Under the pieces are notes generated by a model, which saw nothing but the letters and a program-made list of their open reading frames with translations, was not told the DNA's origin and did not search any database. A DNA stretch of 51,487 nt, taken from NCBI GenBank assembly GCA_032718475.1, contig JAUCBJ010006644.1:1-51487 (forward strand), in the 5' to 3' direction. Of this stretch, positions 12,228 through 44,300 are shown in pieces; positions within the stretch are counted from its first letter, which is position 1, and every line of letters starts with the position of its first letter. Made by a program: the position numbers and the translations under genes. Source of the stretch: Nemertoderma westbladi. Taxonomy: Eukaryota > Animalia > Xenacoelomorpha.

Positions 12228-12426
12228 GATTAGCGCCTTTTCGACTTTGTTAGCGAACGTCTTAATGCTAACGGGATTATCCTGTAGGCCACCGCGATGT
12301 TATGCCTCTCAGCGTCTGCCTGATGATCTTGGCCGGGTGCCCGTATTCCCTATCCAGTGCCCGCCATGCTGTCGTGAAGCCGCCCTCTATTCCTTGATAT
12401 TGCCTCACGATGTCGTATGCTGGGCC

Positions 12427-13598: not shown

Positions 13599-13702
13599 GC
13601 CGCTGGGGATACTCGCAATCCCCCTATTACTTTCCTGACCAAATTGGTTTACTACGGAAGATCCGCAGTGGGCACACCTGAGCGGGTGTGGGCCACTCGG
13701 AC

Positions 13703-22716: not shown

Positions 22717-23860
22717 AGCAATAGCAAGAGGTTTTCAAAATGGCTAAACTACTCAGCACAATACCTGCTGGAATCCTATCTTTAATACCAGATACCACCC
22801 GCCCAGGATGGTTTAATGGAAATGAGGAACAACAATCATTGTCAAAATGGATGTGGTGCGTACACTACATTGTCTGCTCACAGATCCATGACTGTTTTGT
22901 AATAAAAGGGAGTTTGGAGAAAGGCCATATGGTCGACGAGTACGTTGTATTAGAAGGACTAGACAGAGGAACTTCTGTATCAATAAAAATGCTGTACACC
23001 CCTCCAATCTGGCAGGATCGGTTAACAGATTACATGCCAGACCTCATACGGAAAGGAATTGGAAAAGATGGGACAGAATACAACCGAAATAAGGCTGATT
23101 CCTTCCTCGATATTGAACCGCAATTAATTGAAGTAGCTATTTCCTATGTTGGGAATCCATGCCAGTCTTATACGCGGAAAGTTGAAGCGCTGATTATAAA
23201 GGACGTCAGAAATATCACGGCTATAGTAACTATCGACTTTTTCCAACCAGAGTTAATATACGGGGATATTGAATGTCTAAATGCCCAACAGATTTCATAT
23301 ATCCGGGATGCCCTAATCAAGCTAAGACTACAGTTGTCGGACAACGACTGTGAGAAAATTAAGGCGGCTGCAAGGGCTGATGAAGCCCCTCAAGTATTGG
23401 AGATGCCAGACAAAGTAATGTCACTGTTCAATCAGAAAACAGTTGATCCTAATAAAGATTTAGAAAAATGCCACATAAAGCGGATGGACCTACGCAAGGA
23501 GTGCCTGCATATTGCAATAGGAAGGATGTACGAGACAAGGGGTAATTTCGACCTTTTGACACACGCTGATAAAACACCTGATAAAAAACATGAAGGGTGT
23601 AAAATGACCGATAAAAAACATGAAGGGTGTAAAATGACCTGGAAGACAATGTTCCCCCTCGGGATGAAGAAGCTCCCTTAATGGATCAAACTACTAATAT
23701 ATAGGCATGTGAAAATCTAATGTCAAGACTGGTTCCAAATCAAGACACCAATCGTGAATTTGAAGACTTAATAAGGAAATGCTTACCACACTGGGTGAAT
23801 AACATCAAAGGCTGAGAGAAAGCTATGAGGAAAATTGAGGGAGATTGGGGGAGATCATAT
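22717..23860 (+). other. PA: Endogenous viral element: orthomyxovirus-like (Articulavirales) PA polymerase subunit, 5' part
   Basis: The intronless 313-aa ORF 22740-23681 has CVHYIVC, YVVLEGLDR, YMPDLI, LIEVAIS and SYTRK in the order of the influenza PA endonuclease motifs CTHLEVC, FEIIEGRDR, FLPDLY, FIEIGVT and YYLEK. AGCAATAGCAAG starts 23 nt before the ATG, and a degraded continuation runs to about 23860. Confidence 0.8.
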
Positions 23861-24982: not shown

Positions 24983-25013
24983 ATGTGTAAAAATCCTTGT
25001 GTGTATGTCACGA

Positions 25014-27073
25014 TCCACGAAGCTAAGGAAAATCAACTACTTTCGCTAAGAAAGATTTTCCTTAGCTGAGATGGTCTATTCATAGTGGACTATTTTACTT
25101 GTATGGGGCAGATTAGTTTTTTTTTGATAGGTGAAAAAACTAGCCTTTAAAAGTACCCTGAAATTTTGCATGTATATACTACTCGTCGAGGCGCATCTTT
25201 TGGACTGGGTCTCATATCCAGGAAAAATCTGGTTTCCATGGCAACGGACTTAGAAAAAAGTCTATGTATTTCAAGTCAATATTTATAACTCTATTTGTAG
25301 GAAAACTATAATAGATATAAACTTGGGGTTTCTCAACTCAACTATAAGGTCCATAGCAGAGCCGATTGAGGTTAAATAGAAAATCCAGTTACCTTGGCAA
25401 CCGGGCTAAACAGATGTTAAAATTTATAAAATGTTAATTTGAAGCCTAAGGTTAAGGTGTTATGACTTGGAACCAACCCCTACCCCCACGATATAACTTA
25501 TTCTGCGTCCGAATTTGATTGTTCTATTTTGCAGTTACCATGACAACCGCTGTAAACAGATGTTTTTATACAAAAATTACTCATTTGGACATAGACTTCG
25601 CTATAAAATTTTACGAAACTGGTTATGTGTTAACTAGACCACTAGTTGGAACTTTTAGTGAAACTAAAAAACATTCCAGAAATATCTAGTTACCGTGGTA
25701 ACTGGAGTTTATTACAGATTATATCATTCAAGTCTATATTCATCCACGAAGCTAAGGAAAATCAACTACTTTCGCTAAGAAAGATTTTCCTTAGCTGAGA
25801 TGGTCTATTCATAGTGGGCTATTTTACTTGTATGGGGCAGATTTAGTGTTTTTTGATTCCGGAAAAAACTAGCCTTTAAAAGTACCCTGAAATTTTCCAT
25901 GTATATACTACTCATCAAGGCGCGTCGTGTGGGATGGGTCTCATATCCAGGAAAAATCTGGTTTCCATGGCAACGGACTTTTAAAAAAGTCTATGTATTT
26001 CAAGTCAATATTTATAACTCTATTTGTAGAAAAACTATAATAGATATAAACTTGGGGTTCCTCAATTCAACTATAAGGTCCATAGCTGAGCCGATTGAGG
26101 TTAAATAGAAAATCCAGTTACCTTGGCAACAGGGCTAAACAGATGTTAAAATTTATTAAATGTTAATTTGAAGCCTAAGGTTAAGGTTTTATGACTTGGG
26201 ACCAACCCCTACCCCCACTATATACCTTATTCTGCGTCCGAATTTCATTGTTTTATTTTGCAGTTACCATGACAACCGCTGAAAACAGATGTTTTTATGC
26301 AAAAATTACTCATTTTGACATAGACTTCATGATAAAATTTTATGAAACTGCGTATGTGTTATGTGGACCACTATTTGGAACTTTTAGTGAAACTCAAAAC
26401 ATTCCAGAAATATCTAGTTACCATGGTAACTGGAGTTTATTAAAGTCTATATCATTCAAGTCTAAATTCAATACTCTATTTGTAGCAAAATAATGTAATA
26501 TATATAAATTTGGGGTTTTGCAACACATCTATAAGGTCCATATACAAGCCGTTCGAGGTTAATTACACAATCCAGTTACCATAGCAACAATATTAAACAG
26601 ATGTTAAAATTTATAAAATGATAATTTGAAGCACAAGTTAATAGTATAATGACTTGGGACCAAGACCTACCCCCACTATATGACTTATTCTGCATCCGAA
26701 TTACATTGTTCTATTTTTCAGTTTCCATGACAACCACTGCAAACAGATGCATTTTGAATTGTGGCCCTCTGTTTAATTTTCCTTAGCTTCGTGGTTGCAT
26801 TTCCTTTAGGAAATGCCTTTCTAGTAACTCTATTTATAGAATAACCGCAATAGATATAAACTTGGGGTTTCTCAACTCAATGATAAGGACAATTGTCGAG
26901 CTGATTGAGGTTAATTAGAAAATCCAGTTACCAGGGCAACCATGCTAAACAGATGTTCAAATTTATAAAATGGTTATTTGAAGCATAACATTAAGGTATT
27001 ACGACTTGGGACCAATCCCTACCCCCACTATATCACTAATTACGCATCCAATTTAAATTGTCGCATTTTTCAG
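25014..27073 (+). mobile_element. Non-autonomous Helitron-type element A, 5' part; continues at 41336-41615
   Basis: Starts A|TCCACGAAGCTAAGGAAAAT. It is interrupted by copy B and by the BEL/Pao element; removing the latter restores TTTTTCAGTTTCCATGACAACC. Confidence 0.8.
25743..26824 (+). mobile_element. Non-autonomous Helitron-type copy B (1082 bp) nested in copy A
   Basis: 5' TC; 3' hairpin GCATTTCCT-TT-AGGAAATGC then CTTT-CTAG; inserted at TATATTCA|TAACTCT with no TSD; 19-bp subterminal inverted repeat CCACGAAGCTAAGGAAAAT. Confidence 0.85.
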
Positions 27074-27611
27074 TGTGACGGGATCCAGGAGGGATCCCGA
27101 TTTATCCGATGTGGTATTTAGTCCACGCGTCCCCGCCGTGTATAAGAGTGAAATAAAGATAACTGAGTTCTGAAGTTCGGTGTATAATAATAGGTTATAG
27201 GATATAGATATATTGTGAATTATACGGTAGGCGGGATACGGTAACTAAAGTCCCGTGATCCCCTAACTAAACTAATTGGCTGTACCCTATGCTAGCACTG
27301 CTGCACTGAGATAACTGAATCACTGATTAATAGGTTATTGGTTATATTGCACGGTGGCCTTACTGCTACTCAATCGATGCCATTCCCCCCTCTGATTGGT
27401 TAATACCCTTGTTGGCGCCCCGTGGAGTATTCCCGTTCACTCCACCTGTTCTCCTTGGGTTAGGGGTTTGGCCCCTGACCCTCTATTGTGTGCTTCCTTC
27501 CCACTCTTATTGGGATGGCACGAGTTGGTTAATTGCCCAATCTCGTGGCTCCCAATATTGCTTATCGGCTAATAACTTTATGGGGTGTTGGCGGGATTGA
27601 ATAAGCTAACA
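27074..27611 (-). repeat. 3' LTR
   Basis: 538 bp; I found one substitution versus 40793-41330 (CCCTATG vs CCCTACG). Confidence 0.97.
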
Positions 27612-27649
27612 CTCCCCCCCATGCTATCTTCCCGGTAAGAAGATAGCAT
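27612..27649 (-). other. Polypurine tract with adjacent 11-bp stem-loop
   Basis: GGGGGGGAG on the minus strand abuts the LTR; ATGCTATCTTC-CCGGTAA-GAAGATAGCAT lies at 27621-27649. Confidence 0.85.
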
Positions 27650-28321
27650 CAACCAAAAAAGTGCGCTACAATCCCGCTGGATCCCGATCTAGTATCGGGT
27701 GTGGGGTGGAATTCTTTTCTCTTGGAGCCGGCTTTCCAGGCCGCCCCCTATGGGTATGATAACGCTACCCTGTGTGCCTGGCGTCTCATGTCGGGCCGAT
27801 CGCGCTCACCTCTTCACGCGATTTTTGTTTCCCCAACACTTTCGCCCTACCTCCCCTCTACTCTCACCCTAACTCTCTCATACCCCCGGACCTCCTCGTC
27901 CCTCACTCAGCCTCTTATTCTCCCCCCCCCCCCACACTAGAATTGCGCTCGCACTCTCTCCGCACTTCACACTCTTATTCCGATTCTCAACTCCACTTTG
28001 ACTGTTTTATCTCTCCTGACGAACCTCCCCCCCTCTCGTGCCGCCGCACTCAAGAAGCGTGAAATTGTCAGTTGTCTCGTCCATAGTGCCATAGTCAATT
28101 GTCCCCCAGTCCCAGTAGCTAATTGAGAAAGGTTGTATGACTATAGTACTTACTCCGAACGTATGTATTTTACTGCTAATCACTACGTACGTACATACGA
28201 ATTGCACTTATATGGTTATTTGCATTAATTAAATTTATACTTAATAGTTCGTACGTTACATGCGGCGCCTTCCAGGCGCACCACTTCCCAGTCTCAGTCT
28301 CATTCCCCCGTCTCCGGGAAC

Positions 28322-30856
28322 TTATCTGTTCCTCCTCACGTCCTCTTCCCTGGCCCGTTTCTTGGTTATCACCGCTCCTCTGGCATCATCCGCTTTCTGC
28401 TTCCGGAACTTCGCTGCCACTTCCTTGCTGATCCCGGTCGTCGGCTCCTTGGGCGCTGGTGTTATTAAAGCCCGATACCGCTTCGCCGGTGGCCCCTCAG
28501 AATGGCCTGGTTGTCTCCCTCGTGTGGCGTCCCATAGGATCATTTTCATTGCCTTTGGTACGTGTTCCGCCAAGAAATCCCTAAACTCCCTCCGGTTCTC
28601 TGGTGTCCACCTGTCCAGGTACCGTTGCGTGTTCATAACTCCGGCGAACGATGCCGCCGTAGCTACCTCTTGATAGGTAAACGGTAACCTTCGCTTTATG
28701 ATTTCCATGTGGGTCTCCTGGTTTATGAGGAAGAAACCCCACTTGAACTCTTGGGCCTTCATGCGCTGGCGCGTCATGGCCCCGACGTCGGCCCACTCCT
28801 CGAACCTCGTGAACTTCTCCTCGTCGCTCATCCAGTCGCACTCGCGTCCGTAGTGTCCCCGAAAGTGGCACTTTGGACATCGGTTATGCAACCGTGGACA
28901 CGCCCCCATCCTGTGACTTGGTTCTCTACAGTAGAGACAAAAGGTTCCCCGTTGGAACCGGTATAGGCAGCTGCTTTCCTGATGGGTCTGTCTCCCACAG
29001 TAGTCGCAGCCGAGTACCAATGTCTCGCGTCCCACCTCGTCTTTCGTCCCAAGCGATCTCCGCGGTCTATGGAGTCGCTGGTAGGTGAACTTCTCTACGT
29101 TGCTCTCCCTGTTTACGTCTATCTCTCCGCCCCTTTCGGGCATCGTCTCCCCGAATACTATCCGTGGTGCCGTTCCCGGTTGCTCGCCCAACCTGATGGT
29201 GCTCCCCGGGAAATCCATCGCCGGCCCCTCGTGCACCCAGGTCCGCTTGCCGGATCTGTTCCAGAAGGCCCTCGCCCCACTGGCCGTCACCACCCTTCCG
29301 CCAACCCAGTCCGTGTCCGAGTGGCCTATCCTCTCGATGGGCGGCATCTCTCCGAATTCGTCGTCGTCGTCCTCCTCTTCCGGTAGTGTCTCCAATCCCG
29401 GTATCCCGATGGATCCACTATGTCCCTTCCCGCCTTGGCTCTCGCCCGTAGCTCTCCATCCCTCTAACTCCCTTAGCTTCCTTGGCGGTTGGTCGCCCTC
29501 GGCGCCCGCTGGTATGGGCATCGCGTGCAACCCCGACGTCGACTGTTTCGGCGATCCCACCGTCCATCCCAATTCTCGCCCTAGAGACTCCCCCGAACTC
29601 CCCGACGAAGTCCAATGAAGTTCGTCTAGGCCCGCCTGCTCCTCGAAGCCATAACTCTGTGTCCTGGCCTCCTCTTCCCTCTCCTCTGCTTCTATCCTCT
29701 CCCGTCTAGCGACTTCTTCCAGTCGCTTTGCTTCCCGTCTATCCATCTCTAGCTGCTCCCATCTCTGATACGGTGTATCTGTCTCCCCATCTACCAGATG
29801 TCGGCTGTTGTAGTACACCGACTCGCCCTTCAGCCCCGGGTGGTCTACCAGACCGTCAAAGGCCGTCTTAAAGGCTCTCCTGTAGCTTAGGGGTGATCCC
29901 GATAACAGAAATGCCCCTGGTTCCCTTTCGATAACTACGGTCATGAATAAGTTAAGCAAACTTATCATCATCCAGTCCTCCTGCAGGATATATCGCTTCT
30001 GATATACCTTTATCGCTCCTCTGCGAAACTGATATACCTCCTGCTTTCCCGGTCTCGCTCCCCACTTCAGCGAGTTCGCTGGTTCTGCTCCGTATTCTTC
30101 CCTAAACTTCCCCCAATCCATTGGTTTGTGGCATACGAGCCCCAATAATTGGCCCATCGCCACCGCCCCGCATTGGCCTGAGTTCTCGACCACCCCCAAT
30201 CCATCCGGTGCCGTCATAGCCATAAAGACTTTCTGCATATCCAGGAGGTTGGTGGCGTCCGGACCGATGATCCTCTCCGCGTCCTCGCGAATCGCCGATC
30301 CCACTTTCGTCGTCGACTTCTCTCTTACTAAGACTTGTACCGCTTTCGGCAATCGGTCTAATTTCGGCCCGTCCTTCTTCCCATACGTCCCTAGGTCGAA
30401 TAAGAAGATGTCCCCATTTGGCGCTGCCAAATGCAAGAGTATGGTCCTGGCCGACCCTGCCATTCCTCGTCTCGAACCCGCTTCGTCTTCCACGGTTCCC
30501 TCGTCATCTAGGATCATATATCCTCCTCTGTTGACGGATTCTATGAATCTTTTCCAGTCCTTCCTCGGCGATTCCCTCGGATACTTCGGAATCCCGAACT
30601 TCGCCTCGTCTCCTTTCACCACGTAGTGGAAGTGTTGGAAGATCGCGTTGTCCAGCGACGGCGTCCCGTAGGTCCCGACCAACCGCTGTTCGTGCGCCTC
30701 CCGGAAGTGATCCTGCAGCGCCCGTGCCGCGTGACCCCTTTCCAACCTCTCGTAGTATCCTCTCGTCTTCTCCTCCGGGTGTCTTTCGGTGAAATCCACC
30801 AATATTTATTTTCCTCCTGACTCCGCCTTTCTCTTCCTGATCAGCTTACTCGCCAT
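28322..30856 (-). CDS. Extra ORF3: DEDDy-like 3'-5' exonuclease, charged linker, three CCHC zinc knuckles
   Basis: Exonuclease-like motifs ILDDEG, LLHLA..IFLFDL, LP..VQVLV....TKVGSAIREDA, LLDMQ and QKRYILQED. Knuckles CDYCGRQTHQESSC, CLYCREPSHRMGAC and CPKCHFRGHYGREC. An in-frame ATG at 30856 is followed by TAA at 30808-30806; the listed 826-aa ORF starts at TTG 30802. Confidence 0.75.
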
Positions 30857-31370
30857 TCCGAACACTACACTCGCTCACCTGTAGGGTGGTGCCTTACCAA
30901 GGCGCAATACAGATGAGTGATGTATTAAGATGTTTCGTACAGTTCGATAATGGCCTACTTTTCTACTTAACTGCGCCTTTCAAGCTTAATTTAATCTAAT
31001 TAATTTCGGAGCTAGTAAATCAGCCTAATTTACAATTTCCGTCCGTTACTTTTATTATGTTCTAGAACGACTTTCCTTGTGTTACCACTATTTTCCGATT
31101 TTTTAGCCCTATTCTATTTATTTATTTATTTTGCTTTGATTCTACTGTCCTACTACTTACTACTGCCTATGGATTTATTCTATTCTCTCTCTGATCCATA
31201 TTCTGGCCTACTCAGTGGGCCTATGCAGTACAGCAGTATGCGTCGTGTGGCCACACGATTTATCCAGCTGCACTCATATGCCCCCCTCTCTCTACTAACT
31301 CTACTTACTGCTAACTAATATCTATATCCTATTTACCCCTTTTACCTCTCACTCTCTCTCTCTAACTAAT

Positions 31371-32020
31371 GGTACTACGTACCCCCTAACTCTAACTCTA
31401 ACTAGGTATCACGTACCTACTAACTCTAACTCTAACTAGGTACTACGTACCTACTAACTCTAACTAACTATTGGTACTACGTACCCTCTAACTCTAACTC
31501 TAACTAGGTACTACGTACCTACTAACTCTCTAACTATCGGTACTACGTACCCTCTAACTCTAACTCTAACTAGGTACTACGTACCTACTAACTCTCTAAC
31601 TGTCGGTACTACGTACCTACTAACTAACTCTAGGTACTACGTACCTACTAACTCTCTAACTATCGGTACTACGTACCCTCTAACTCTAACTCTAACTAGG
31701 TACTACGTACCTACTAACTCTCTTACTATCGGTACTACGTACCTACTAACTCTAACTCTAACTAGGTACTACGTACCCACTAACTCTCTTACTATCGGTA
31801 CTACGTACCCTCTAACTCTAACTCTAACTAGGTACTACGTACCTACTAACTCTCTAACTATCGGTACTACGTACCCTCTAACTAACTAACTCTAGGTACT
31901 ACGTACCTACTAACTAACTAACTTTAGGTACTACGTACCTACTAACTAACTAACTCTAGGTACTACGTACCTACTAACTAACTAACTTTAGGTACTACGT
32001 ACCTACTAACTAACTAACTA
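31371..32020. repeat. Internal tandem array, about 20 units of ~33 bp with a palindromic core
   Basis: GGTACTACGTACC cores separated by variable TAACTC/TAAC microrepeats. Confidence 0.92.
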
Positions 32021-32128
32021 TTATTTTTATTTTATTTTATTTTTATTTGTGTGGGAAGGGCGTCTCGCCCTCAATCCCACCCCCCTCAGTCCAAAACTTG
32101 GACGACTAAACTCCACTCTAACTCCGCT

Positions 32129-35100
32129 CTAAGGTGCTCCTTCTAAGAGACAGCATTTACCTACTGCTCTCCTGTAGGTTTTTCTGTCCTTCGCACCTAT
32201 CTTTCCACCTATCCGCACTTCTACCGATCGGACTCTTCCGTCCTCGTCGGAGTAGGTGCCTACAACTCTCGCCAACCGCCATTGGTTGTTGATGATAGTA
32301 TCATCCGTGACGATTACGAGATCTCCCTCTCTTAACTCCCTGTTCGGCTTCCTCCACTTGCTTCGCTTATGGAGAGTGGGTAGGTATTCTTCTACCCACC
32401 TCCTCCAATACTCTGCGCTTATTGCTTTAGCGACTTTCCAACTCTGGCGGGAATGTATGTCATCTGGGTCTACACCCCGCATATCGATGGTCGCTGGCCT
32501 TTCCATCAGAAAATGGCTAGGCGTCAGCACGTCTAACGACTCAGGGTCATCATTCTCCGGATATAGCGGTCTGCTATTAATGATCCCCTCGCACTTCGCA
32601 AGTACCGTCCGTAAGACGTCTTCAGTGACCATGTGGGTGTTCATCAGCTTCATCATTAGACGTTTTGAACTGCCCACCAGTCTTTCGACGCATCCTAGTG
32701 TATGTGGTGCATACGGCGTCCGTCTCTCCCACTTTACTTGTCGTCTCCTCATGGCCGCCCTGACTTCTTCTCCCTCCAAGATGTCTAAGGCCTCTGCCAT
32801 CTCACTCTCTGCGCCCACAAAGTTGGTGCCGTTGTCGCTATATATCACTGCGATCGTCCCACCTTTGCGGTCCCTAAACCTTTCTAAGGCGTTAATGAAC
32901 GCTGATGCGGTTGCATCTTGGGCGAGTTCTATCCCTACCGCCCGCGTATTGTTGCATACGAAGATAATACCGTAGCGTTTCTCCGTGTGTCGCATCACTT
33001 TGATCTTTATCGGCCCGAACATGTCCACACCGCAATGCGTAAATGGCGGGTCGTGCTGTCTTACCCTACTCGCCGGTAGTGGCGCCATCTCCTGTACGGC
33101 TCGTTCCTTCTTCGCTCGCCGGCAGGTCTGGCACTGCCCCACTACCGCTTTAACCTTCTTCCTTAGTTGTTTGACCCAATAGGTCCTCCTTATCTCTGTG
33201 AGGGTTCGGTTGGTGCCCCCATGCAGTATCGATTTGTGGGAGTCCCATATGATCTGGTGGACTATAGGCGATCCTGTGGGAATGATGATGGGTTTCGGTG
33301 GCACGACTATACTGTTGTTATATCCCACCCTAGAATTCATTACTAGAATCCCATCCTCGTTGAGTTGTGGCGACAGCGTGATCAACCCGCTGTCCCGTCG
33401 GAGGTGCTGTTGGTTGCCGACACGTTCCACTTCGTCGCTGTAGTTCTTGCGTTGTTCATAGCGGATCACTGCATTGGCCGCTCCTTCCAGATCTATGGTT
33501 GTCCTGGTCTTCTTGTACTTGCCGACTCCCGCAAGGAAATTCCCAAAGGCTCTCCAGTACGCCACTAATTTCTTGGTCTTATACCAACTAGAACTGTAGC
33601 TGAGGAGTTTATCCGTCGGGTTATCGCACAGTTCCCTTCCTGGTTGCACGTCCCTAATCTCCCTCACCATCTGGGAGTATATCTCTTCTCCCTCTGAATC
33701 TCCCTCTCCTTCTGATACTGGTTCCGAGCCCGGGTCCACCTTCCTCATCGGCGGCCAGGCCTCTCTATCGCTCAGAAATTGTGGCCCATGTTGCCACAAT
33801 ACTTCCTTCTTCAGGAAAGTGTGGCGTTCCACGCCCCTCGACAGCAAGTCCGCTGGGTTCTCATCTGTTGGGCAGTAGTGCCACCTTTCCAGTTCTGTGC
33901 TCGCCCTTATTTCGTCCACTCTATTTGCGACGAATATCGGGTATCTCGTCTTTTCGTTGTGTAGCCAACCAAGCACTACCATGGAGTCCGTCCAGTAGTG
34001 TGTCTCCACTATGTTGGGAATTGTATCCACTAGGTAGGCTGTGGCTCTAACTCCTAGTCTCGCAGCTGTCAATTCTAGCTTAGGAACAGATGCTGAATCT
34101 GGCGGCGTTGACTTAGCTTTGCTAAAGGCTAGTCTGGGCTTGTGAGCCCCCTCTCGTTGTACTAAATAGAGTGCCGCTCCGTATGCCTCTAACGACGCGT
34201 CGGAGAACATATGTAGGTCCAGATTCGTCATGTTCCCGTCCGGGACGTATACTCGCGGCATGTTATATGTTCCCATCCTCTCCAAGTCTCCTGTCCATTT
34301 GCTCCACTGTTTCTTGATGTCTTCTGGTACCTCTACATCCCACTCATCCTTCAACTTATATACTCTCTTGAGTATCTGTTTCCCCGTGACTAGTAATGGG
34401 GATGCTAGGCCTAGGGGATCGTATATCCTTGCTATATACGATACATAACCCCTCTTCGTATGGGTGTCTGCGCCCTCTTGGCTCAGCTGATACTTCAGTT
34501 CGTCTGTTCCTCTATCCCACACGATTCCCAATGCCTTTTGCTGCGATTGTGTTCTCTTATTTGCCATGTCCTGTCCTTTGGCTGTTGTAGGGTTGTCCAT
34601 GGTCGATTCCGGTTTCTTGTCTTCTATTTCCTTGATAAATTCTTCTGAACTGGATTGGAATTTGGTCAGGTTGAAGCCGGATCCTTTCAGGATGTCGCGA
34701 ACCTCGCGCCCTGTTTCCAGTATCTCCTCAACCGTATTTCCAGACTCCATACCGTCATCTACGTAGAAGCCGCGTCGGATCATATCGACGGCCCTACTGC
34801 TGTATCTATCTTCTTTCCCCTTTACCGTGTCTCTCACTGCCATAGTCGTCGTAAATGAGGACGACTTGGCCCCCATATTTTGTACTACCATCCTATACGC
34901 TGGTATTACCGGCGGTTCTTCTTCGCCGTTATACCATAAGAAGCGTTGACTGTCACTATCTTCTTCCGTTACACGTACCTGGTTGAACATGCCTTCTATG
35001 TCACACGTGAAGGCGTGTTTCCCGTTTCGAAACCTAAGTAACACCTCTATGCCCGAATTGTAAATATTTGGGCCTTCCAACAGGTAATCGTTTAAGCATT

Positions 35101-37336
35101 TTCCGTCGGTCTTTGCCGATGCATCGACTACCATCCTAAGTTTACCTTTCTTCGGGTCTAAAGCTACGTGGAGAAGCAGGTAGTATGTCCTGTCCGTGTT
35201 CGGTTCGTCGACCGGTAACTCCACGGCCCATCCCTTCTCGACGTACTTCTTGATCGTTTTGTGAATGTACTCGTTCTTCTCGGGGCTCCGTTGTAGTGTT
35301 TGTTTCAGTTTGCGGAGTCTCGTGAGTACCATCCCTCTATTATCGGGTAGCGGTATCTTCGGTAGTTTCCATACCATTCCTATTGTATACCGCCCCTCAT
35401 CACACGTCATCGATTCCTCCACACTTTGTAGAGCCTGCTTGTCTTCTACCGAGGTCCCGACCCCTGTCTCTTTCAGTCCCTCAAAGTCTTGTCTGAGCAG
35501 TCTTTTAAGCTGCTCCTCTGCTCCCTCGTCACCCATTTCCTGCATTGTTCCCGCGAACATGCATCCTGATGTCTCCGACATCCTGAATGGTATCTTGCTC
35601 TTAATTGGACCACTCAGCGTCCACCCGAATGGCGTTAATATGGCCACCGGGTCGCTCTGCTTGTCTTCGCCGAAGACCGTTTGCATTCTCTCGTGGGCCG
35701 TTGGGCAGTCCATGCCTACTATGATGGATACCTTCCTAACGTCCACGTCTGGGATTGAGAAGTCAATGTTGTCCAGGAATTTGTATTGCTCGACCTCGAT
35801 GTTGGTTGGCCGCCTGGCATTGATGTTAATTGACTCTATTACTTGGATGGGGTCGATGGTTGCCCCATAATCGCATCCTGGTGCCACTGCTGCAATTGCG
35901 CACCGTCCTGTCCTCATCTCTAGGATCTCGTCTTTGCTAGAGATGGTTGTCACCGCCATCCTGCTTGGCCTCGTTCTCAACCCTATTTCTTCGGCTACCC
36001 ATTCCTCAACTAATGTGAAGGCAGCTCCACTATCAACCAGCATTAGTGTTGTTACTGATCGATTGCCTTCCCCGATCACTCGTACTGGTACTACTCCAAG
36101 TAGCACTGTTCCTCTCTTCTTCACCCCTACCGTGCTCGTTGCCATCGTCTGGCCTCTCCTTTGGCCAAACTTGACCGGCTTCTCTTGGCATTCCCTGGCC
36201 TTGTGTCCACTCTTTACACATCGCGAGCAGATTTTATTGCTCGACGCGTAATCTATCTGGTCTTGCCTCGGTAGCGCCTGCCAGTACCTGCAGTTCATGG
36301 TTTTATGAAGCGCATTTGCGTGTAACTGGCATTTGCTCTTTGGGTCGTAGCCCTCTTTATACAATGCATTGCGTATCGCAGTTATATTCGTACCAAAGTC
36401 CCTACTATTCTTATTGACTGGATTTGGCCTACTGGACGTACTGGGGTTATGTTTATTCATGTTGTTATTGTTCCCCTGTCCGTCCCTTGATGTTGTCTTA
36501 TCTTCGCTTGTCTGTGGACTTGCAGTCCCCTGCGTCGCTGCGTATGGCAATGATTGCCTGAGTCTCGGTAACGCGTTCGATGTATTGTGCTCTGGTTTGG
36601 GCCTGTAGTGATCTGTCTTTGGTCCCTTTCCCAGGCTATCTTCACTATAAACTGGGTCCGTTATTAGTTCAGCCTCGTAATTTAAGAAGTTTGACATTTC
36701 TTCTAAACCTGGTTCCGCACCCTTCTTGTCTCGGGTGGAGAAAGCGATCTTCCTCCATTTGTTGCGCAGCCAACTCGGTAGTGCCTGCGCTATCGTGGTG
36801 ATGTTATTGGACGCGTTGAGCTCGTATGGCGCGTCTAGCGTCTTCAGCACGATCAGCGCCTTCTCGACTTTGTTAGCAAACGTCTTAATGCTAACGGGAT
36901 TATCCTGTAGGCCACCCGATGTTATGCCTCTCAGCGTTTGCCTGATGATCTTGGCCGGGTGCCCGTATTCCCTATCCAGTGCCCGCCATGCTGTCGTGAA
37001 GCCGCCCTCTATCCCCTGATATTGCCTCACGATGTCGTATGCTGGGCCTCCCGTGTACACTTGTAGATACTTTAGGCACTCCGCCTGCGTCAAGTTTTTT
37101 GTTAGTATTTCGTTACTATACATTCGCCGAAACTGTAAGTATTCTTCCGGCCTGCTCCCATCGAATTTGAACGGTTCCACGGGTGGTAATTCGATCCTCG
37201 TTTTCAACGCATCGATCAACGTGGCCATCCCCATTGCCTGCGCTTCTAATGGATTCGACGGGTGCTGTATAGTTTCCCCTGTCTGGTGCGGTTCGTCCGT
37301 CCTATTTCTTAATCTTCTCTGACTCGGATATGTCAT
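32129..37336 (-). CDS. pol: BEL/Pao Gag-Pol polyprotein (1735 aa open)
   Basis: Gag FDGS..EY..F, knuckle CSRCVKSGHKAREC, protease LVDSGA, RT FYVDDG, RNase H LHMFSDAS..AYGA and WTDS, integrase HHCC plus GVDMFGP, SDNGTNF and GCVERL, and the C-terminal WRRWVEEYLPTL typical of BEL/Pao. Confidence 0.97.
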   Translation of the reverse strand: MTYPSQRRLRNRTDEPHQTGETIQHPSNPLEAQAMGMATLIDALKTRIELPPVEPFKFDGSRPEEYLQFRRMYSNEILTKNLTQAECLKYLQVYTGGPAYDIVRQYQGIEGGFTTAWRALDREYGHPAKIIRQTLRGITSGGLQDNPVSIKTFANKVEKALIVLKTLDAPYELNASNNITTIAQALPSWLRNKWRKIAFSTRDKKGAEPGLEEMSNFLNYEAELITDPVYSEDSLGKGPKTDHYRPKPEHNTSNALPRLRQSLPYAATQGTASPQTSEDKTTSRDGQGNNNNMNKHNPSTSSRPNPVNKNSRDFGTNITAIRNALYKEGYDPKSKCQLHANALHKTMNCRYWQALPRQDQIDYASSNKICSRCVKSGHKARECQEKPVKFGQRRGQTMATSTVGVKKRGTVLLGVVPVRVIGEGNRSVTTLMLVDSGAAFTLVEEWVAEEIGLRTRPSRMAVTTISSKDEILEMRTGRCAIAAVAPGCDYGATIDPIQVIESININARRPTNIEVEQYKFLDNIDFSIPDVDVRKVSIIVGMDCPTAHERMQTVFGEDKQSDPVAILTPFGWTLSGPIKSKIPFRMSETSGCMFAGTMQEMGDEGAEEQLKRLLRQDFEGLKETGVGTSVEDKQALQSVEESMTCDEGRYTIGMVWKLPKIPLPDNRGMVLTRLRKLKQTLQRSPEKNEYIHKTIKKYVEKGWAVELPVDEPNTDRTYYLLLHVALDPKKGKLRMVVDASAKTDGKCLNDYLLEGPNIYNSGIEVLLRFRNGKHAFTCDIEGMFNQVRVTEEDSDSQRFLWYNGEEEPPVIPAYRMVVQNMGAKSSSFTTTMAVRDTVKGKEDRYSSRAVDMIRRGFYVDDGMESGNTVEEILETGREVRDILKGSGFNLTKFQSSSEEFIKEIEDKKPESTMDNPTTAKGQDMANKRTQSQQKALGIVWDRGTDELKYQLSQEGADTHTKRGYVSYIARIYDPLGLASPLLVTGKQILKRVYKLKDEWDVEVPEDIKKQWSKWTGDLERMGTYNMPRVYVPDGNMTNLDLHMFSDASLEAYGAALYLVQREGAHKPRLAFSKAKSTPPDSASVPKLELTAARLGVRATAYLVDTIPNIVETHYWTDSMVVLGWLHNEKTRYPIFVANRVDEIRASTELERWHYCPTDENPADLLSRGVERHTFLKKEVLWQHGPQFLSDREAWPPMRKVDPGSEPVSEGEGDSEGEEIYSQMVREIRDVQPGRELCDNPTDKLLSYSSSWYKTKKLVAYWRAFGNFLAGVGKYKKTRTTIDLEGAANAVIRYEQRKNYSDEVERVGNQQHLRRDSGLITLSPQLNEDGILVMNSRVGYNNSIVVPPKPIIIPTGSPIVHQIIWDSHKSILHGGTNRTLTEIRRTYWVKQLRKKVKAVVGQCQTCRRAKKERAVQEMAPLPASRVRQHDPPFTHCGVDMFGPIKIKVMRHTEKRYGIIFVCNNTRAVGIELAQDATASAFINALERFRDRKGGTIAVIYSDNGTNFVGAESEMAEALDILEGEEVRAAMRRRQVKWERRTPYAPHTLGCVERLVGSSKRLMMKLMNTHMVTEDVLRTVLAKCEGIINSRPLYPENDDPESLDVLTPSHFLMERPATIDMRGVDPDDIHSRQSWKVAKAISAEYWRRWVEEYLPTLHKRSKWRKPNRELREGDLVIVTDDTIINNQWRLARVVGTYSDEDGRVRSVEVRIGGKIGAKDRKTYRRAVGKCCLLEGAP

Positions 37337-37448
37337 CGGGGGTAGCGGCCCCCTCCATATGTCTGTATCACACGACCTGTTTTCATCTAGGGGTCTCGTT
37401 GTTCTTGTTCCTGTCGGGGTATATTGTTGATATTGCGATGGGGGAATG

Positions 37449-39245
37449 TCACCCTGTCCCCCCCCCCACCGGTATGTCTGGTACTGGGGTTGATGTTAAT
37501 ATGTTGGGGCCCATACACCTATCCGCAATAATTCCCCCCTCCCCTGGGTATATGTTATGTCCCTGCATGCTGTAGTCATACTGCTGTGCTGGTACCGGTA
37601 TAGGCCTATCAGCTTCTGGCCTACTCGCCGGTATGTATTCCGCGACTTCCGGGTTTAATCCCATCGTCCGCGCTATCCTATCGCCTACATTGCCTCTCTC
37701 AGTATGGCCTACGGTATGTGCAGTAAGACCTACAGTATGCCCTACAGTCTGCATGTGTTGCTCGGGATCGAAGTTTATTCTTCTCGAATAATCCTCCCCG
37801 CGGCTACCGTATTCTCGATCGGTAGGTATATTCCGTCGGAAAGTTTCTCTTCGACCCCTCTCTCCACTGTTTTCATCTTCGTACCGGTACATCGCGTACC
37901 CCTCTCTCGGCGTGTAATGCGTCTCACCGGATCGCATCCCTCCGGGGCGACGGCAATCTCCCGGAGTCCGACCCCACTGACTTTCCGTTCTCATCTCGAC
38001 TACCGACGGCTCGCTGTCCGTCCTCGCTCTTCTATCGTTTGCGGCGATACTCCTACTACTGTCTTCCTCTCTTCTCCTATCAGTGGAATATTCCCGCTCA
38101 CGAGATCTCTCGTCGACCTCCCGGTTAAACCCCACTGTTCTTCTTTCCTCCTCTGATCGGGCTCGACGCTCCGTCTGCCCTCCCGCGACGTCAACCTGTC
38201 TTTCTCTGCTCGATCGCACGTCGCTGGGGATACTCGCAATCCCCCTATTACTTTCCGTCGCCGGTTGTTGCGGTTTACCTTGTTCGGCCCTCGCATTATC
38301 CGCTGACGGCTGTGGGACACTCTCTGCCCCCCCCCTTCTCGCCACTAACTCTCTGTTGTGGGGCCCTCGTAGCCCCCCCCCCCCCCACTCGCTACATCTA
38401 ACTTCGCTACCTCTCGCCCCGCTACTATATATCTCTCTAGTCGACACATCAACCCTACCACAGTCGTGTCTGTTCACCCCCGCCTCTCCCTCTGCTATTG
38501 CGTTGCCTTCCAGGCCCTCTACTCCCTGCCTACCAACCACGCGGCCTACCAGGCCCTCTCCTCCCTGTCTACTAACTACGCGGCCTACCAGGCCCTCTGC
38601 TCCCTGTCTACTAACTACGTGGCCTACCAGGCCCTCTGCTCCCTGGTTACATAGGCCCGACGTGTTTACATTAATAGCACCCATATTGGAAACGGAATTA
38701 ATTTGCTCATTTGAAACAAAATCATTTGTATTATTCTGCGCGACTACGTTATCTGAATTATTTTGTAAATTCGGGCTAAGATCATTATTTGAATTATTCG
38801 AATTATTCTGTGTAATTGCGTTATTTAAGTTATTTTGTAGGTCCGAATTCGAGTTATTATTTTGATTATTTGAATTATTTTGCGTAACTACATCAATATT
38901 AGGATTATTTTCTACATTATCACTGGGATTGTTCTGATTTAAATTTAAATTACTACCACTAGGCAAAGTATTTCCTGTAATAAAGGTTTGATTAGCGTTA
39001 TCCCATACGGTACTATTAATATCAACAACGTCTACTGTACCATTATTATTACCCCCCCCGCCCGTACGGTCGCACCAGTTTTGGGTCTGTCGTGCGGTCC
39101 CTGTCAGTGGAGTATTAATAAATATATCTACGGCCCTCGGCTCCTCAAAAATACTCGAGCCGGCCCCAGTTTCAGACGGCGGTCCCACTCGCACGTATTC
39201 CAACTCGTGCTCCCCTCTAATTATATTTCCCGCAAACTCACTCAC
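37449..39245 (-). CDS. Low-complexity N-terminal gag extension, part 2 (Asn-rich, 13-aa repeats)
   Basis: 598-aa ORF ending just after a 10-G run; the adjacent frame runs on into gag-pol. Confidence 0.7.
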   Translation of the reverse strand: MSEFAGNIIRGEHELEYVRVGPPSETGAGSSIFEEPRAVDIFINTPLTGTARQTQNWCDRTGGGGNNNGTVDVVDINSTVWDNANQTFITGNTLPSGSNLNLNQNNPSDNVENNPNIDVVTQNNSNNQNNNSNSDLQNNLNNAITQNNSNNSNNDLSPNLQNNSDNVVAQNNTNDFVSNEQINSVSNMGAINVNTSGLCNQGAEGLVGHVVSRQGAEGLVGRVVSRQGGEGLVGRVVGRQGVEGLEGNAIAEGEAGVNRHDCGRVDVSTREIYSSGARGSEVRCSEWGGGGLRGPHNRELVARRGGAESVPQPSADNARAEQGKPQQPATESNRGIASIPSDVRSSRERQVDVAGGQTERRARSEEERRTVGFNREVDERSREREYSTDRRREEDSSRSIAANDRRARTDSEPSVVEMRTESQWGRTPGDCRRPGGMRSGETHYTPREGYAMYRYEDENSGERGRRETFRRNIPTDREYGSRGEDYSRRINFDPEQHMQTVGHTVGLTAHTVGHTERGNVGDRIARTMGLNPEVAEYIPASRPEADRPIPVPAQQYDYSMQGHNIYPGEGGIIADRCMGPNILTSTPVPDIPVGGGTG

Positions 39246-40678
39246 CGTTTCTTTAATTCCTTGCGCTCCTTTTCACTCTCTGCCACTATCCCCTCACGCT
39301 CCTGGGTGTCCTTGATGGCCGAGTCTGCGGCACTCTTAATGCTCTCCCTTCGTCTCGCCCCACGCTCTTTGCGTTCCTTTTCCTTTCTCGTCTCATATTC
39401 CTTGCGTTCCGCCTCACGCTCCTTGCGTTCCCTTTCCTCCCTTGCCTCACGCTCCTTGCGTTCCCCTTCCTCTCTCGCCTCACGCTCCTTGCGTTCCTTT
39501 TCCATTCTCGCCTCACGCTCCTTGCGTTCCGCCTCACGCTCCTTGCGTTCCCTTTCCTCTCTCGCTTCACGCTCCCTACACTCCCTTTCCTCTATCTCAT
39601 CATACTCCCTTAGGCTTTTCAAAGCCCTTTCGGCCCTTTCTCCGGTTTCTCTAAGCAATACCGTTTCCCTCTCTAACCGCACTCTTCCCTCCTCTAGCCG
39701 TTCCTTCATTTCTCTCTGACCTTGCTCTGCCATGCTGAGACGGTATGCGGCTCCTATTTTTCTCACCGCTCTTTCTTTCGCGGAGGATGTAGCAGACTTA
39801 TCGGTTACGACGGACTTCCCCCGCCTTCCCGACCTACTAACTTTCTCCCACTTCCCGGAGCTTTCTCCGACCGACGAGGCCGAATCCTCGGTGTTAACCT
39901 CGGATTCGCCCCCTTCGAGTCCCCTCCAACCCACCGGTTTTACTCCCCGGGCATCGACCAAGTATGGCCCTATGTACACTGGCGCTACACTAGGTTCCAT
40001 ACTCCCACACTCCCATAGTTCAAACAGTTCGCCGGCTATCCTTTCTGCTCTCTCCCCGGCCAGTTCTCTCTGCCCAAAACGTATTAGGTAATTTAAGTGT
40101 CTATCCGACTCACCTAGTCGCTTTCTCACTCTCACCTCGTCTACCTTCGCCCCTTCCTTCTTGGCGTCGTTTATCAGCTTCCGGGTCGCGTTGTAGGCCC
40201 GTCGAAGTCGCTCAGAAACCCCGACGTCCTCGTCGCCGACCTCTCCTCCGTCCCTCCGGGTCCGACGTCGTACCGGCGGCTCCACCGTCGCCGTTCCGGT
40301 GGGCCGTCCGTCGCCCTCGGCCTGTAGCTGGCCGGCGACATCGGTACCGATCTCTCCTCCGTCTCTTCGTGTCCGGCGTCGCACCGTCGGCCCCACCGTC
40401 GCCGTTTCGGTGGGCCGCCCGTCGCCCTCGGCCTGTAGCTGGCCGGCGACATCGGCGCGCCGTTCTCCCTCTCGTGTCGACTCATCTCCTTCTCCCTCCG
40501 TCTCGCTCTCTCTCTCTCTTGGCTCGACTTCGGGTTCCAGGCCCTCCTCGTCCTGTACTTCCGGTTCGCCCGTTATCGATGGCTCCGGCGTCGTGGGCCT
40601 GTATCGTTTGGTCGCGGCCTCGCGGATCGTTAGGTCTTCGTCCGGGGTCCGCGTCGGTGTCTCGCCCGATTCACTCAT
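39242..40678 (-). CDS. N-terminal gag extension, part 1 (37-aa duplication, E/R/K coiled-coil-like repeats)
   Basis: 478-aa ATG-initiated ORF starting about 115 bp inside the 5' LTR boundary and overlapping the next ORF by 4 nt. Confidence 0.7.
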   Translation of the reverse strand: MSESGETPTRTPDEDLTIREAATKRYRPTTPEPSITGEPEVQDEEGLEPEVEPRERESETEGEGDESTREGERRADVAGQLQAEGDGRPTETATVGPTVRRRTRRDGGEIGTDVAGQLQAEGDGRPTGTATVEPPVRRRTRRDGGEVGDEDVGVSERLRRAYNATRKLINDAKKEGAKVDEVRVRKRLGESDRHLNYLIRFGQRELAGERAERIAGELFELWECGSMEPSVAPVYIGPYLVDARGVKPVGWRGLEGGESEVNTEDSASSVGESSGKWEKVSRSGRRGKSVVTDKSATSSAKERAVRKIGAAYRLSMAEQGQREMKERLEEGRVRLERETVLLRETGERAERALKSLREYDEIEERECREREAREERERKEREAERKEREARMEKERKEREAREEGERKEREAREERERKEREAERKEYETRKEKERKERGARRRESIKSAADSAIKDTQEREGIVAESEKERKELKKR

Positions 40679-40792
40679 CTCGTTTGTGGCTGATGATTCG
40701 GCTAGCTAGGTTGCAGTTCTTAGAGTTTGACTAGGGCGGCAGCTCGGTTTAGTTACTGAGTTTAGCTGGGGAAGCAACACCGTTTTAGTTAC

Positions 40793-41330
40793 TGTGACGG
40801 GATCCAGGAGGGATCCCGATTTATCCGATGTGGTATTTAGTCCACGCGTCCCCGCCGTGTATAAGAGTGAAATAAAGATAACTGAGTTCTGAAGTTCGGT
40901 GTATAATAATAGGTTATAGGATATAGATATATTGTGAATTATACGGTAGGCGGGATACGGTAACTAAAGTCCCGTGATCCCCTAACTAAACTAATTGGCT
41001 GTACCCTACGCTAGCACTGCTGCACTGAGATAACTGAATCACTGATTAATAGGTTATTGGTTATATTGCACGGTGGCCTTACTGCTACTCAATCGATGCC
41101 ATTCCCCCCTCTGATTGGTTAATACCCTTGTTGGCGCCCCGTGGAGTATTCCCGTTCACTCCACCTGTTCTCCTTGGGTTAGGGGTTTGGCCCCTGACCC
41201 TCTATTGTGTGCTTCCTTCCCACTCTTATTGGGATGGCACGAGTTGGTTAATTGCCCAATCTCGTGGCTCCCAATATTGCTTATCGGCTAATAACTTTAT
41301 GGGGTGTTGGCGGGATTGAATAAGCTAACA
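40793..41330 (-). repeat. 5' LTR
   Basis: 538 bp, TGTTAGC...CGTCACA on the minus strand, flanked by the TTCAG TSD. Confidence 0.97.
41031..41067 (-). promoter_or_regulatory. Candidate LTR core promoter (TATA plus initiator)
   Basis: Minus-strand TATAA starts at 41065 and the A of TCAGTT is at 41035, 30 nt apart. A similar CAATATA...TTCAGTTAT occurs in the related LTR at about 50814-50855. Confidence 0.4.
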
Positions 41331-41335
41331 TTCAG

Positions 41336-44300
41336 TTTCCATGACAACCACTACAAACAGACGTTTTAGCAATTAAATCCTTTGTTTTACACATTAACTA
41401 CTCAATGAAACTGAATTGAAGTATGTGTCACCTGGAACCACAAACCGGATCTTAATGTAATCCTCAGCAGTTCTAGAAAATTCTGGTTGCCATTGTAATA
41501 TGAGTTTTTAAGGCATATGCCTCTTAACTCGGTAAAGCAATGAAGTGATGAGTCAAAGAGTGTTGAATTTTCCTTAGCTTCGTGGTTGCATTTCCTTTAG
41601 GAAATGCCTTTCTAGTACACGAAGCTAAGGAAAATCAACTACTTTCGCTAAGAAAGATTTTCCTTAGCTGAGATGGTGTATTCATAGTGGGCTATTTTAC
41701 TTGTGTGAGGCAGATTTAGTGTTTTTTGGTCGGGGAAAAAACTAGCCTTTAAAAGTACCCTGAAATTTTGCATGTATGTACTACTCATCGAGGCGCGTCG
41801 TGTGGGATGGGTCTCATATTCAGGAAAAATCTGGTTTCCATGGCAACGGACTTAGAAAAAAGTCTATGTATTTCAAGTCAATATTTATAACTCTATTTGT
41901 AGGAAAACTATAATACATATAAACTTGGGATTTCTCAACTCAACTATAAGGTCCATAGCAGAGCCGATTGAGGTTAAATAGAAATTCCAGTTACCTTGGC
42001 AACCGGGCTAAACAGATGTTAAAATTTATAAAATGTTAATTTGAAGCCTAAGGTTAATGTGTTATGTCTTGGGACCAACCCCTACCCCCACTATATGACT
42101 TATTCTGCGTCCGAATTTCATTGTTTAATTTTGCAGTTACCATGACAACCGCTGAAAACAGATGTTTTTATACAAAAATAACTCATTTGGACATAGACTT
42201 CGCGATAAAATTTTACGAAATTGGATATGTGTTATCTGGACCACTAGTTGGAACTTTTAGTAAAACCTAAAACATTCCATAAATATCTTGTTACCATGGT
42301 AACTGGAGTTTATTAAAGTCGATATCATTCAAGTCTAAATTCAATACTCTATTTGCAGCAAAATAATGTAATAAATATAAATTTGGGGTTTTGCAAGTCA
42401 TCTGTAAGGTCCATATACAATCCATTCGAGGTTAATTACACAATCCAATTACCATAGCAACAAGACTAAACAGATGTTAAAATTTCTAAAATGATAATTT
42501 GAAACACAAGTTAATAGTATTATGACTTGGGACCAAGACCTACCCCCATTATATGACTTATTCTGCATCCGAATTACATTGTTCTATTTTTCAGTTTCCA
42601 TGACAACCACTGCAAACAGATGCATTATGATAGAAAATCGGTAATTTGGACATAAACTACAATATTTTCTGAAACTTGGTATGTGTTATCTGAACCACAA
42701 TCTGGACTGAATCTTTTTTCAAAGGTAAAACCAACAGTTCCAGAGAATTCTAGTTTCCATGGGAATATAAGTTATTTATTGGCAAATGCTACTAAACTAG
42801 GCTAAGCAACAAACCAAATTATGGCCCTTTGTTTAATTTTCCTTAGCTTCGTGGTTGCATTTCCTTTAGGAAATGCCTTTCTAGTATGTGTTATCTGAAC
42901 CACAATCTGGACTGAATCTTTTTTCAAAGGTAAAACCAACAGTTCCAGAGAGATCCACGAAGCTAAGGAAAATCAACTACTTTCGCTAAGAAAGATTTTC
43001 CTTAGCTGAGATGGTGTATTCATAGTGGGCTATTTTACTTGTATGGAGCAGATTTAGTGTTTTTTGATTCCGGAAAAAACTAGCCTTTAAAAGTACCCTG
43101 AAATTTTGCATGTATGTACTACTCGTCGAGGCGCATCGTGTGGGCTGGGTCTCATATCCAGGAAAAATCTGGTTTCCATGGCAACGGACTTAGAAAAAAG
43201 TCTATGTATTTCAAGTCAATATTTATAACTATATTTGTAGGAAAACTATAATAGATATAAACTTGGGGTTTCTCAACTCAACTATAAGGTCCATAGCAGA
43301 GCCGATTGAGGTTAAATAGAAAATCCAGTTACCTTGGCAACCGGGATAAACAGATGTTAAAATTTATAAAATGTTAATTTGAAGCCTAAGGACAAGGTGT
43401 TATTACTTGGGACCAAACCCTACCCCCACTATATAACTTATTCTGCGTCCAAATTTCATTGTTCTATTTTGCAGTTACCATGACAACCGCTGAAAACAGA
43501 TGTTTTTATACAAAAATAACTCATTTGGACATATACTTCGCGATAAAATTTTACCAAACTGGGTATGTGTTATCTGGACCAATAGTTGGAACTTTTAGTG
43601 AAACTCAAAACATTCCAGAAATATCTTGTTACCACGGTAACTGGAGTTTATTAAAGTCTATATCATTCAAGTCTAAATTCAATACTCTATAAATATTCTC
43701 GTATTGTGTGAGGCAGATTTGTTTTTTTTAAGTCCAGCAAAAACTAGCCTTTAAAAGTACCCTGAAATTTTGCATGTATATACTACTCGTCGAGGCGCAT
43801 CTTTTGGGCTGGGTCTCATATCCAGGAAAAATCTGGTTTCCATGGCAACGGACTTAGAAAAAAGTCTATGTATTTCAAGTCAATATTTAAAACTCTATTT
43901 GTAGGAAAACTATAATAGATATAAACTTGGGGTTTCTCAACACAACTATAAGGTCCATAGCAGAGCCGATTGAGGTTAAATAGAAAATCCAGTTACCTTG
44001 GCAACAGGGATAAACAGATGTTAAAATTTATAAAATGTTAATTTGAAGCCTAAGGTTAAGGCGTTATGACTAGGGACCAATCCCTACCCCCACTATATAA
44101 CATATTCTGCATCCGAATTTGATTGTTCTATTTTGCAGTTACCATAACAACCGCTGAAAACAGATGTTTTTACACAAAAATTACTCATTTGGACATATAC
44201 TTCGCGATAAAATTTCAGGAAACTGGGTATGTGTTATCTGGACCACTAGTTGGAACTATTAGTGAAACTCAAAACATACCAGAAATATCTAGTTACCATG

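Follow-up and report, generated by a model that had tools for sequence, protein, structure and literature searches.

A predicted DEDDy exonuclease with zinc knuckles encoded as a third gene of BEL/Pao retrotransposons

ORF3, the third gene of a BEL/Pao LTR retrotransposon from Nemertoderma westbladi, can be assigned with near certainty to a family of proteins that combine a predicted DEDDy-type 3'-5' exonuclease domain with three zinc knuckles. Additional genes in LTR elements of animals are usually interpreted as env. ORF3 does not resemble env and, across metagenomes, is found directly behind BEL-type pol genes. The gene was first noticed in a sequence-only reading of the window, the whole stretch of 51,487 nucleotides that was analysed (contig JAUCBJ010006644.1, assembly GCA_032718475.1). 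All features given below lie on the minus strand unless stated otherwise.

The BEL/Pao Element

The element spans positions 27074-41330 of the window (14,257 bp from LTR to LTR). Its 538-bp LTRs (5' LTR, 40793-41330, with TG...CA ends; 3' LTR, 27074-27611) differ at one base of 538, and a 5-bp target-site duplication was read from the sequence (upstream copy at 41331-41335, the other at 27069-27073). The insertion is recent. A polypurine tract is found at 27612-27620. The gag region contains a first frame of 487 aa (39242-40705) and a second of 607 aa (37449-39272), neither of which gave a match in a Pfam search. The frame changes at either end of the second frame may be programmed, or may reflect mutation or assembly error. 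Where the first gag frame ends, two strong splice-donor-like motifs stand in tandem (39234-39246). The end of gag and pol share a frame of 1788 aa (32129-37495) with DUF1759, a knuckle, protease, RT, Peptidase_A17 (Pao), integrase, and DUF5641, in which the order protease-RT-RNase H-integrase is combined with Pao-specific domains. Pfam matches to this frame include PF05380 (E 8e-40), PF18701 (4e-24), and PF03564 (9.5e-11); Peptidase_A17 (E 8e-40), DUF1759, and DUF5641 all score above their curated cut-offs. Because of the Peptidase_A17, DUF5641, DUF1759, protease, and integrase matches, the element is identified as a BEL/Pao LTR retrotransposon. Pol is separated from ORF3 by a 1.3-kb spacer which includes tandem repeats (31354-32019).

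In public DNA runs all 30 bins of the element are covered, at a depth that does not equal copy number, and many variant contigs are present; the element therefore represents a multi-copy family. An internally deleted sister copy lies at 8736-13635, where gag-protease is joined in frame to the knuckle half of ORF3 (ORF 9981-12299). The sequence-only reading correctly stated that the knuckle half is conserved in the sister, but this state arose only because an internal deletion, which took out everything from RT through RNase H and integrase to the exonuclease half, joined the remainder in frame to gag-protease. One of two inverted copies of a 350-bp repeat (5302-5658 and 13787-14143) adjoins the truncated 5' end of the sister. 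The element itself sits within an array of dispersed or tandem repeats with units of roughly 0.5-1.4 kb (25000-27070 and 41335-48600). Elsewhere in the window are a 27-bp minisatellite (49355-50560, about 37 overlapping copies listed) and a plus-strand open frame of 318 aa (22725-23681) with zero Pfam matches.

The primer-site position (40784-40792) lacks the usual TGG. Its nine bases are complementary to a stretch inside the LTR, which is offered as a lead only (0.0012 by shuffle). The LTR partner (40960-40995) consists of two nested blocks that are also kept in the sister LTR. The duplex reaches -30.5 kcal (4 of 500 shuffles), but stronger pairing was obtained for 3 of 42 other segments of the element. 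This pairing resembles Tf1-type self-priming, for which it is a weak lead. Relatives carrying ORF3 have ordinary TGGCGCC-type, tRNA-type primer sites, which rules out self-priming as a family-wide job of ORF3. In five relatives (L037, L060, L065, L066, and L068) the 3' untranslated region contains, ahead of the polypurine tract, a short segment that is conserved and complementary to the primer site of the same element. This segment is presumably a tRNA-Lys-like sense sequence, and its pairing with the primer site could join the two ends of the genome.

Reading Frame and Domains of ORF3

ORF3 is an open frame of 827 aa (28322-30805). It is preceded by an ATG and 16 codons (30806-30856) that end in an in-frame TAA at codon 17 (30806-30808; ATG at 30856), so that the window copy is broken at this point. 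The sequence-only reading had described one ORF of about 830 aa over 28322-30856; a frame of this size does lie between pol and the 3' LTR, but the stop was overlooked. The next Met is residue 97. By eye, similarity to homologues seems to reach upstream of this Met, into the strand and helix that precede Exo I, and the fold match begins near aa 42. Therefore the ORF3 of the window must be either broken or dependent on splicing. A putative splice acceptor, recognized by motif only, is located about 25 bases before the ATG (30879-30890). The copy is probably impaired unless the stop is bypassed by splicing. As a variant, the codon-17 stop was absent from the best 40 of about 2,330 variant rows.

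The DEDDy-type exonuclease domain covers aa 42-338 (29792-30682). Its motif residues are D100 (30506-30508) and E102 (30500-30502) of Exo I, D175 (30281-30283) of Exo II, and Y272 (29990-29992) and E276 (29978-29980) of Exo III. These motifs had been recognized in the sequence-only reading with residue numbers one too low. D100, E102, and D175 fall in conserved alignment columns (the Exo I DxE and the Exo II D). A linker at aa 389-594 (29024-29641), modelled with low confidence (pLDDT under 50), is probably disordered. It is followed by the knuckle module at aa 595-715 (28661-29023), which ends in a conserved FE..AD.G..T..R..WGF tail. Three perfect CX2CX4HX4C knuckles, as first described, begin at aa 600, 623, and 643 (28967-29008, 28898-28939, and 28838-28879).

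The claim that ORF3 has no transmembrane segment also held, as the hydropathy maximum over 19 residues is 1.3, at the Exo III helix. With no transmembrane-like stretch and no Pfam match, ORF3 is not env-like. Neither a transmembrane anchor nor fusion-protein homology was detected by hydropathy, Pfam, or viral fold matches; among the 50 viral fold matches listed, those carrying names are exonucleases, polymerases, or uncharacterised proteins.

Predicted Fold and Homologues

As a single protein, ORF3 gave zero matches against Pfam and PDB sequences, and both runs of word-indexed homologue searches were likewise empty. A search among 1.84 billion representatives yielded 73 homologues at E<=0.001, of which the 31 longer proteins were aligned with the window protein (32 rows). 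All 31 align over the knuckle module, with 12 invariant Cys/His/Gly columns, and most also align over the exonuclease motifs. Given these 73 homologues and shared columns, the motifs of ORF3 are not due to chance. A family profile built from 19 rows matches EXD2 (E 9.5e-10), WRN (2.2e-05), and Trypanosoma brucei RNase D (TbRND; 2.3e-06), the last over both domains.

A fold predicted from the single sequence (pLDDT 33) was discarded, and modelling from the 32-row alignment gave two confident domains and a low-confidence linker. The best Foldseek match of ORF3 is TbRND (E 4.6e-05), with Egalitarian and Nibbler among the first to follow; EXD2 and EXD1 are also matched. In the structure comparison VIA, the Nibbler EXO domain reaches Z 14.2 (rmsd 3.7, 204 aligned), WRN and TbRND both reach Z 13.5, and Nibbler, WRN, and Egalitarian span Z 12.6-14.2. 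Nibbler EXO, NrnC, WRN, and TbRND all score within 1 Z of each other. These values therefore establish the superfamily but do not single out a nearest family. In the Atlas search PF01612 was assigned to ORF3 at 0.94; the best value for the knuckle module was 0.86, a lead only. The DnaQ/DEDDy fold proposed in the sequence-only reading thus agrees with profile, Foldseek, and VIA results, and the model predicts an exonuclease domain of the RNase D/WRN type.

Linkage to Pol and Common Descent

A DNA pattern covering the second and third knuckles was run against metagenomes and returned at least 120 stretches, 80 of them with flanks. Among the matches listed, the knuckle profile matches 77 of the 80 flanked stretches and the exonuclease profile 53 of these 77. 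In loci with at least 1.5 kb 5' of the knuckles, the exonuclease is present in 48 of 57 among the matches listed, and a wider profile adds seven. At two loci a knuckle module stands behind BEL pol with no exonuclease detectable even by the wider profile (L047:3341-6529 and L059:6880-9648).

Because the search selected on knuckles only, linkage to pol is an independent result. Scored as similarity to the pol of the window, a BEL-type pol lies directly upstream on the same strand in 27 of the 28 loci with at least 3 kb 5' of the exonuclease, among the matches listed; this count gives no share of BEL elements with ORF3, the loci were drawn mostly from a small number of assemblies, and elements that are related do not count as independent observations. 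The linkage that the sequence-only reading had suggested looking for elsewhere is therefore present in metagenomes. With at least 1 kb upstream, pol was matched in 34 of 40 loci among the matches listed, the misses being mostly short contigs. The 27 pol-linked loci form 23 groups at 70% and 17 groups at 50% exonuclease identity; the A17 region was matched in 24 and the DUF5641 region in 26 (all among the matches listed). In Pfam, each of three long pols examined showed Pao domains, and two partial pols showed DUF5641. The one exception, L022, shows by eye direct repeats and a gag-like frame: the repeats surround this frame and ORF3, with no pol (L022:5187-10931), and the locus is a possible non-autonomous derivative. 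A GIY-YIG frame lies near the L022 repeats on the opposite strand. A search of viral contigs for the ORF3 family gave no locus.

Exonuclease and integrase distances agree across 34 elements (Mantel rho 0.83, 0 of 2000 permutations). Since kinship alone yields such agreement, it speaks for co-inheritance and not for co-adaptation, and would fit one old capture followed by descent with pol. L032 and L072 (identical to L008) as well as L048 were omitted from the trees; the integrase tree is a quick tree in which the window's own branch is long and unplaced.

Selection and Loss of Catalytic Residues

Neutral evolution, which the sequence-only reading had named as an argument against its own proposal, is not what was found. 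By the Nei-Gojobori method, with pairs that share members, 14 of 15 exonuclease pairs give a dN/dS of 0.04-0.23, and one is saturated; of the 15 pairs for the knuckle module, 13 give 0.02-0.20, and two are saturated. Between the window and sister copies it is 0.095 over 300 codons of the C-terminal half of ORF3, and 0.093 for gag-pol. Among the best 40 of about 2,330 variant rows from public DNA, 15 of 16 ORF3 variants are synonymous.

Catalytic signatures were scored at five motif columns in 48 loci, with rows gapped at these columns dropped. Among the matches listed, 19 of 48 loci are DEDYD, three DEEYD, and three DEDHD, and all four carboxylates are kept in 25 of 48, across deep branches; the window reads DEDYE. 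The Exo III residue is Asp in 31 and Glu in 12 of 53 rows among the matches listed, with the Glu rows mostly in a clade without Exo I residues, hereafter the dead clade. That Exo III carries E for D had been noted in the sequence-only reading and is confirmed as YxxxE. The same DEDYE signature occurs in 4 of the 31 homologues (P0004, P0005, P0008, and P0009), and since all four keep the other four residues the Glu is not simple decay. Two of these homologues form a group with the window protein (0.96).

Both trees recover the dead clade as a single group: the quick integrase tree holds it with 14 rows (SH-aLRT 99), and the exonuclease tree with 18 rows (0.999). Inside the dead clade dN/dS is 0.04-0.23, as constrained as in other lineages. 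Therefore cutting is dispensable in one lineage and the domain is not. Divergent groups (L008, L016, L010, L077, and L079) have His in place of the Exo III Tyr (DEDHD, NEEHN), which may mark a switch from DEDDy to DEDDh.

The Pol-ORF3 Junction in Relatives

In some relatives ORF3 appears to be reached from pol directly. Among the matches listed, ORF3 is open and in the frame of pol past a single stop at 10 of 35 junctions (L007, L021, L029, L031, L034, L065, L068, L069, L076, and L080), where shuffles expect 0.82, and no second stop follows for 470-850 bases. The stop is UGA at all ten, with C next in nine and CAAUUA next in two; UGA-C plus a stem-loop is a recognised readthrough signal. Each of the ten UGA stops is followed by a helix of 7-10 bp starting 8-15 bases downstream, whose letters differ from element to element; as the hairpins aligned poorly in MAFFT, the helices were scored per sequence. 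Seven of the ten junctions contain a YCGG motif (bulge) at +19/20. The helix is also present in three close kin of this set, and 21 of the remaining 22 loci reach at most 6 bp while one reaches 7 bp. An in-frame ORF3 behind one UGA and a hairpin points to a fusion of Pol and ORF3 by programmed readthrough in ten relatives. Among four close kin with the signal, however, the interval is interrupted by a stop in L033 and is out of frame in L002, L037, and L062, and the interval is poorly conserved, aligning at no more than 54-66% with non-triplet gaps. Readthrough is therefore likely at most. The element of the window has no readthrough junction.

Comparison With Known Systems

Vesta and Juno of bdelloid rotifers are gypsy-like retrotransposons. 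A DEDDy ORF3 with a DEED motif, its function untested there, has been described in these LTR elements and in Terminons (Rodriguez, Kenefick, and Arkhipova, 2017; PMC5408684). As in the elements discussed here, the rotifer gene encodes an RNase D-like exonuclease as ORF3, behind pol and in the place of env; the accessible text claims no transmembrane or coiled-coil env features for it and proposes the same candidate roles (PMC5408684). Compared by description only, Vesta and Juno are marked by dUTPase and GPY/F features, and their ORF3 is DEED with no knuckles mentioned in the accessible text (PMC5408684), whereas the carriers here are BEL/Pao elements (Peptidase_A17, DUF5641) with three knuckles, mostly DEDD residues, a dead clade, and likely readthrough. 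The rotifer case is repeated in the available portions of PMC5718144, PMC6431247, and PMC6338049, which do not name a BEL case. The accessible text on BEL/Pao elements in PMC3118150 reports env in few of them and lacks the word 'exonuclease'; that of PMC7998251 holds nothing bearing on ORF3. A DEDDy ORF3 is published for rotifer elements (PMC5408684, accessible text), so that the idea is known and the ORF3 of the window is less new. Prior cataloguing for BEL/Pao, which the sequence-only reading had named as a refutation, was not encountered: a full-text literature search, which most subscription papers lie outside, turned up no BEL/Pao element described with a DEDDy-knuckle ORF3. Nor did this literature contain the BEL/Pao lineage, knuckle fusion, inactive clade, or readthrough, which may be catalogued in repeat databases such as Repbase, Dfam, or GyDB.

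TbRND (PDB 7C45; PMC7797062) also carries a DEDDy exonuclease followed by CCHC knuckles, and both of its domains match the family profile. Unlike ORF3, it is a cellular, U-tail-specific enzyme with four knuckles and a short linker. At 14-17% identity the shared architecture may be convergent. Nibbler/Mut-7, EXD2, WRN, Egalitarian, and EXD1 share the fold, in a group that holds both active and inactive members, but they are host genes with other partner domains and 11-15% identity. A DEDDy exonuclease is encoded by Dada DNA transposons as well, inserted there in a DDE transposase and described, in the accessible text, from a fungus and a brown alga (PMC3706591). With regard to expression, Sirevirus env-like ORFs are described as expressed by stop suppression in the part of PMC3414828 available. 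SIRE1 similarly has an extra ORF in frame past one pol stop, an arrangement found here in relatives and not in the window, although SIRE1 is a plant Copia element with env-like cargo (PMC3414828, same part).

Proposed Function of ORF3

The best explanation, given somewhat less than an even chance, is that ORF3 acts on RNA inside the element's own particle. An old BEL/Pao lineage has ORF3 as its accessory gene, which encodes the predicted DEDDy 3'-5' exonuclease domain and three zinc knuckles; the knuckles would hold RNA and the nuclease domain would bind or trim 3' ends. RNA is suggested as the substrate by analogy with TbRND, whose knuckles raise RNA binding and cleavage (PMC7797062, accessible text). 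Delivery into the particle would follow from the likely Pol fusion in relatives; in the window copy, where ORF3 is separate, a spliced or internally started message would be needed. As the dead clade stays conserved, RNA binding may be the core job and cutting an extra. Against this explanation stand the Exo III Glu of the window where most rows have Asp, a linker of 200 residues compared with about 28 in TbRND, the knuckle modules without exonuclease in L047 and L059, and the separate ORF3 of the window element. Moreover, the structure searches give no basis for telling DEDDy enzymes specific for RNA from those specific for DNA.

A second candidate is counter-silencing, in which the protein would work in trans against host piRNAs or siRNAs, either by shortening them at the 3' end or by sequestering them from the silencing machinery. 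Nibbler, EXD1, and Egalitarian are among the nearest folds, binding without cutting would account for the dead clade, and an accessory gene absent from most BEL/Pao elements would suit host conflict. This reading is unlikely, if still a serious contender: purifying selection is uniform, with no sign of fast evolution in pairwise dN/dS, a Pol fusion made by low-level readthrough would fit a sequestering protein poorly, and NrnC and WRN, enzymes unrelated to silencing, lie within 1 Z of the same fold neighbours. In a bolder version, itself unlikely, env would have been replaced by a Nibbler/RNase D-like RNA-end enzyme with knuckles, delivered in the particle and directed against host small RNAs at the genome RNA by clearing or blocking them; this would be a counter-defence nuclease of animals encoded by a transposon, with one branch later becoming a pseudo-nuclease. 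The further proposal that this counter-defence lineage is widespread and ancient, with UGA-readthrough fusion to Pol as delivery in some branches, is equally speculative. Within it, ORF3 might also mature the self-primer of the window element. An RNA adaptor or chaperone, with cutting incidental as in Egalitarian or EXD1, could instead localise or package element RNA as a scaffold. Catalytic residues were lost once, in one lineage whose domain is still strongly constrained, Egalitarian-RNA complexes rank high in Foldseek, and L047 and L059 retain the knuckle module alone. The four carboxylates kept in 25 of 48 loci across deep branches (among the matches listed) require selection on catalysis, however, which makes a pure adaptor improbable.

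Single-stranded RNA binding is established for nucleocapsid-type knuckles and TbRND, and the knuckles of ORF3 accordingly argue against a DNA-side enzyme that proofreads reverse transcription or trims the 3' end or primer of cDNA ahead of integration. Such an enzyme would be in keeping with WRN and the proofreading domains of polymerases, whose Z values fall in the same range, the subset with fusion to the integrase end of Pol, the missing TGG of the window's primer site, and the DNA-end processing proposed for the Dada DEDDy domain (PMC3706591, accessible text). However, dead-clade elements look intact and ORF3-bearing relatives have ordinary TGGCGCC-type primer sites. This possibility is more remote, and the cDNA proofreading or primer processing put forward in the sequence-only reading is weakened as a general function. 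That ORF3 is passive cargo, a fragment captured from a host gene that does nothing for the element, is scarcely credible. The codon-17 stop and the exonuclease half lost in the sister would allow it, but it conflicts with dN/dS of 0.04-0.23, co-descent with pol, a fixed position in 27 of 28 loci (among the matches listed), and 15 of 16 variants synonymous within the window family (best 40 of about 2,330 variant rows). Passive cargo is refuted by dN/dS at the level of the family, and may hold for the window copy alone.

Significance

ORF3 is an enzyme-type gene, undetected by Pfam, that has long been kept by purifying selection across many BEL/Pao families. Its paired natural versions, active and inactive as well as fused and separate, make the question raised by the rotifer elements, namely the role of a retrotransposon DEDDy exonuclease, testable. 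Should small RNAs turn out to be its target, ORF3 would offer a rare case in animals of piRNA-type silencing countered by a gene of the element itself.
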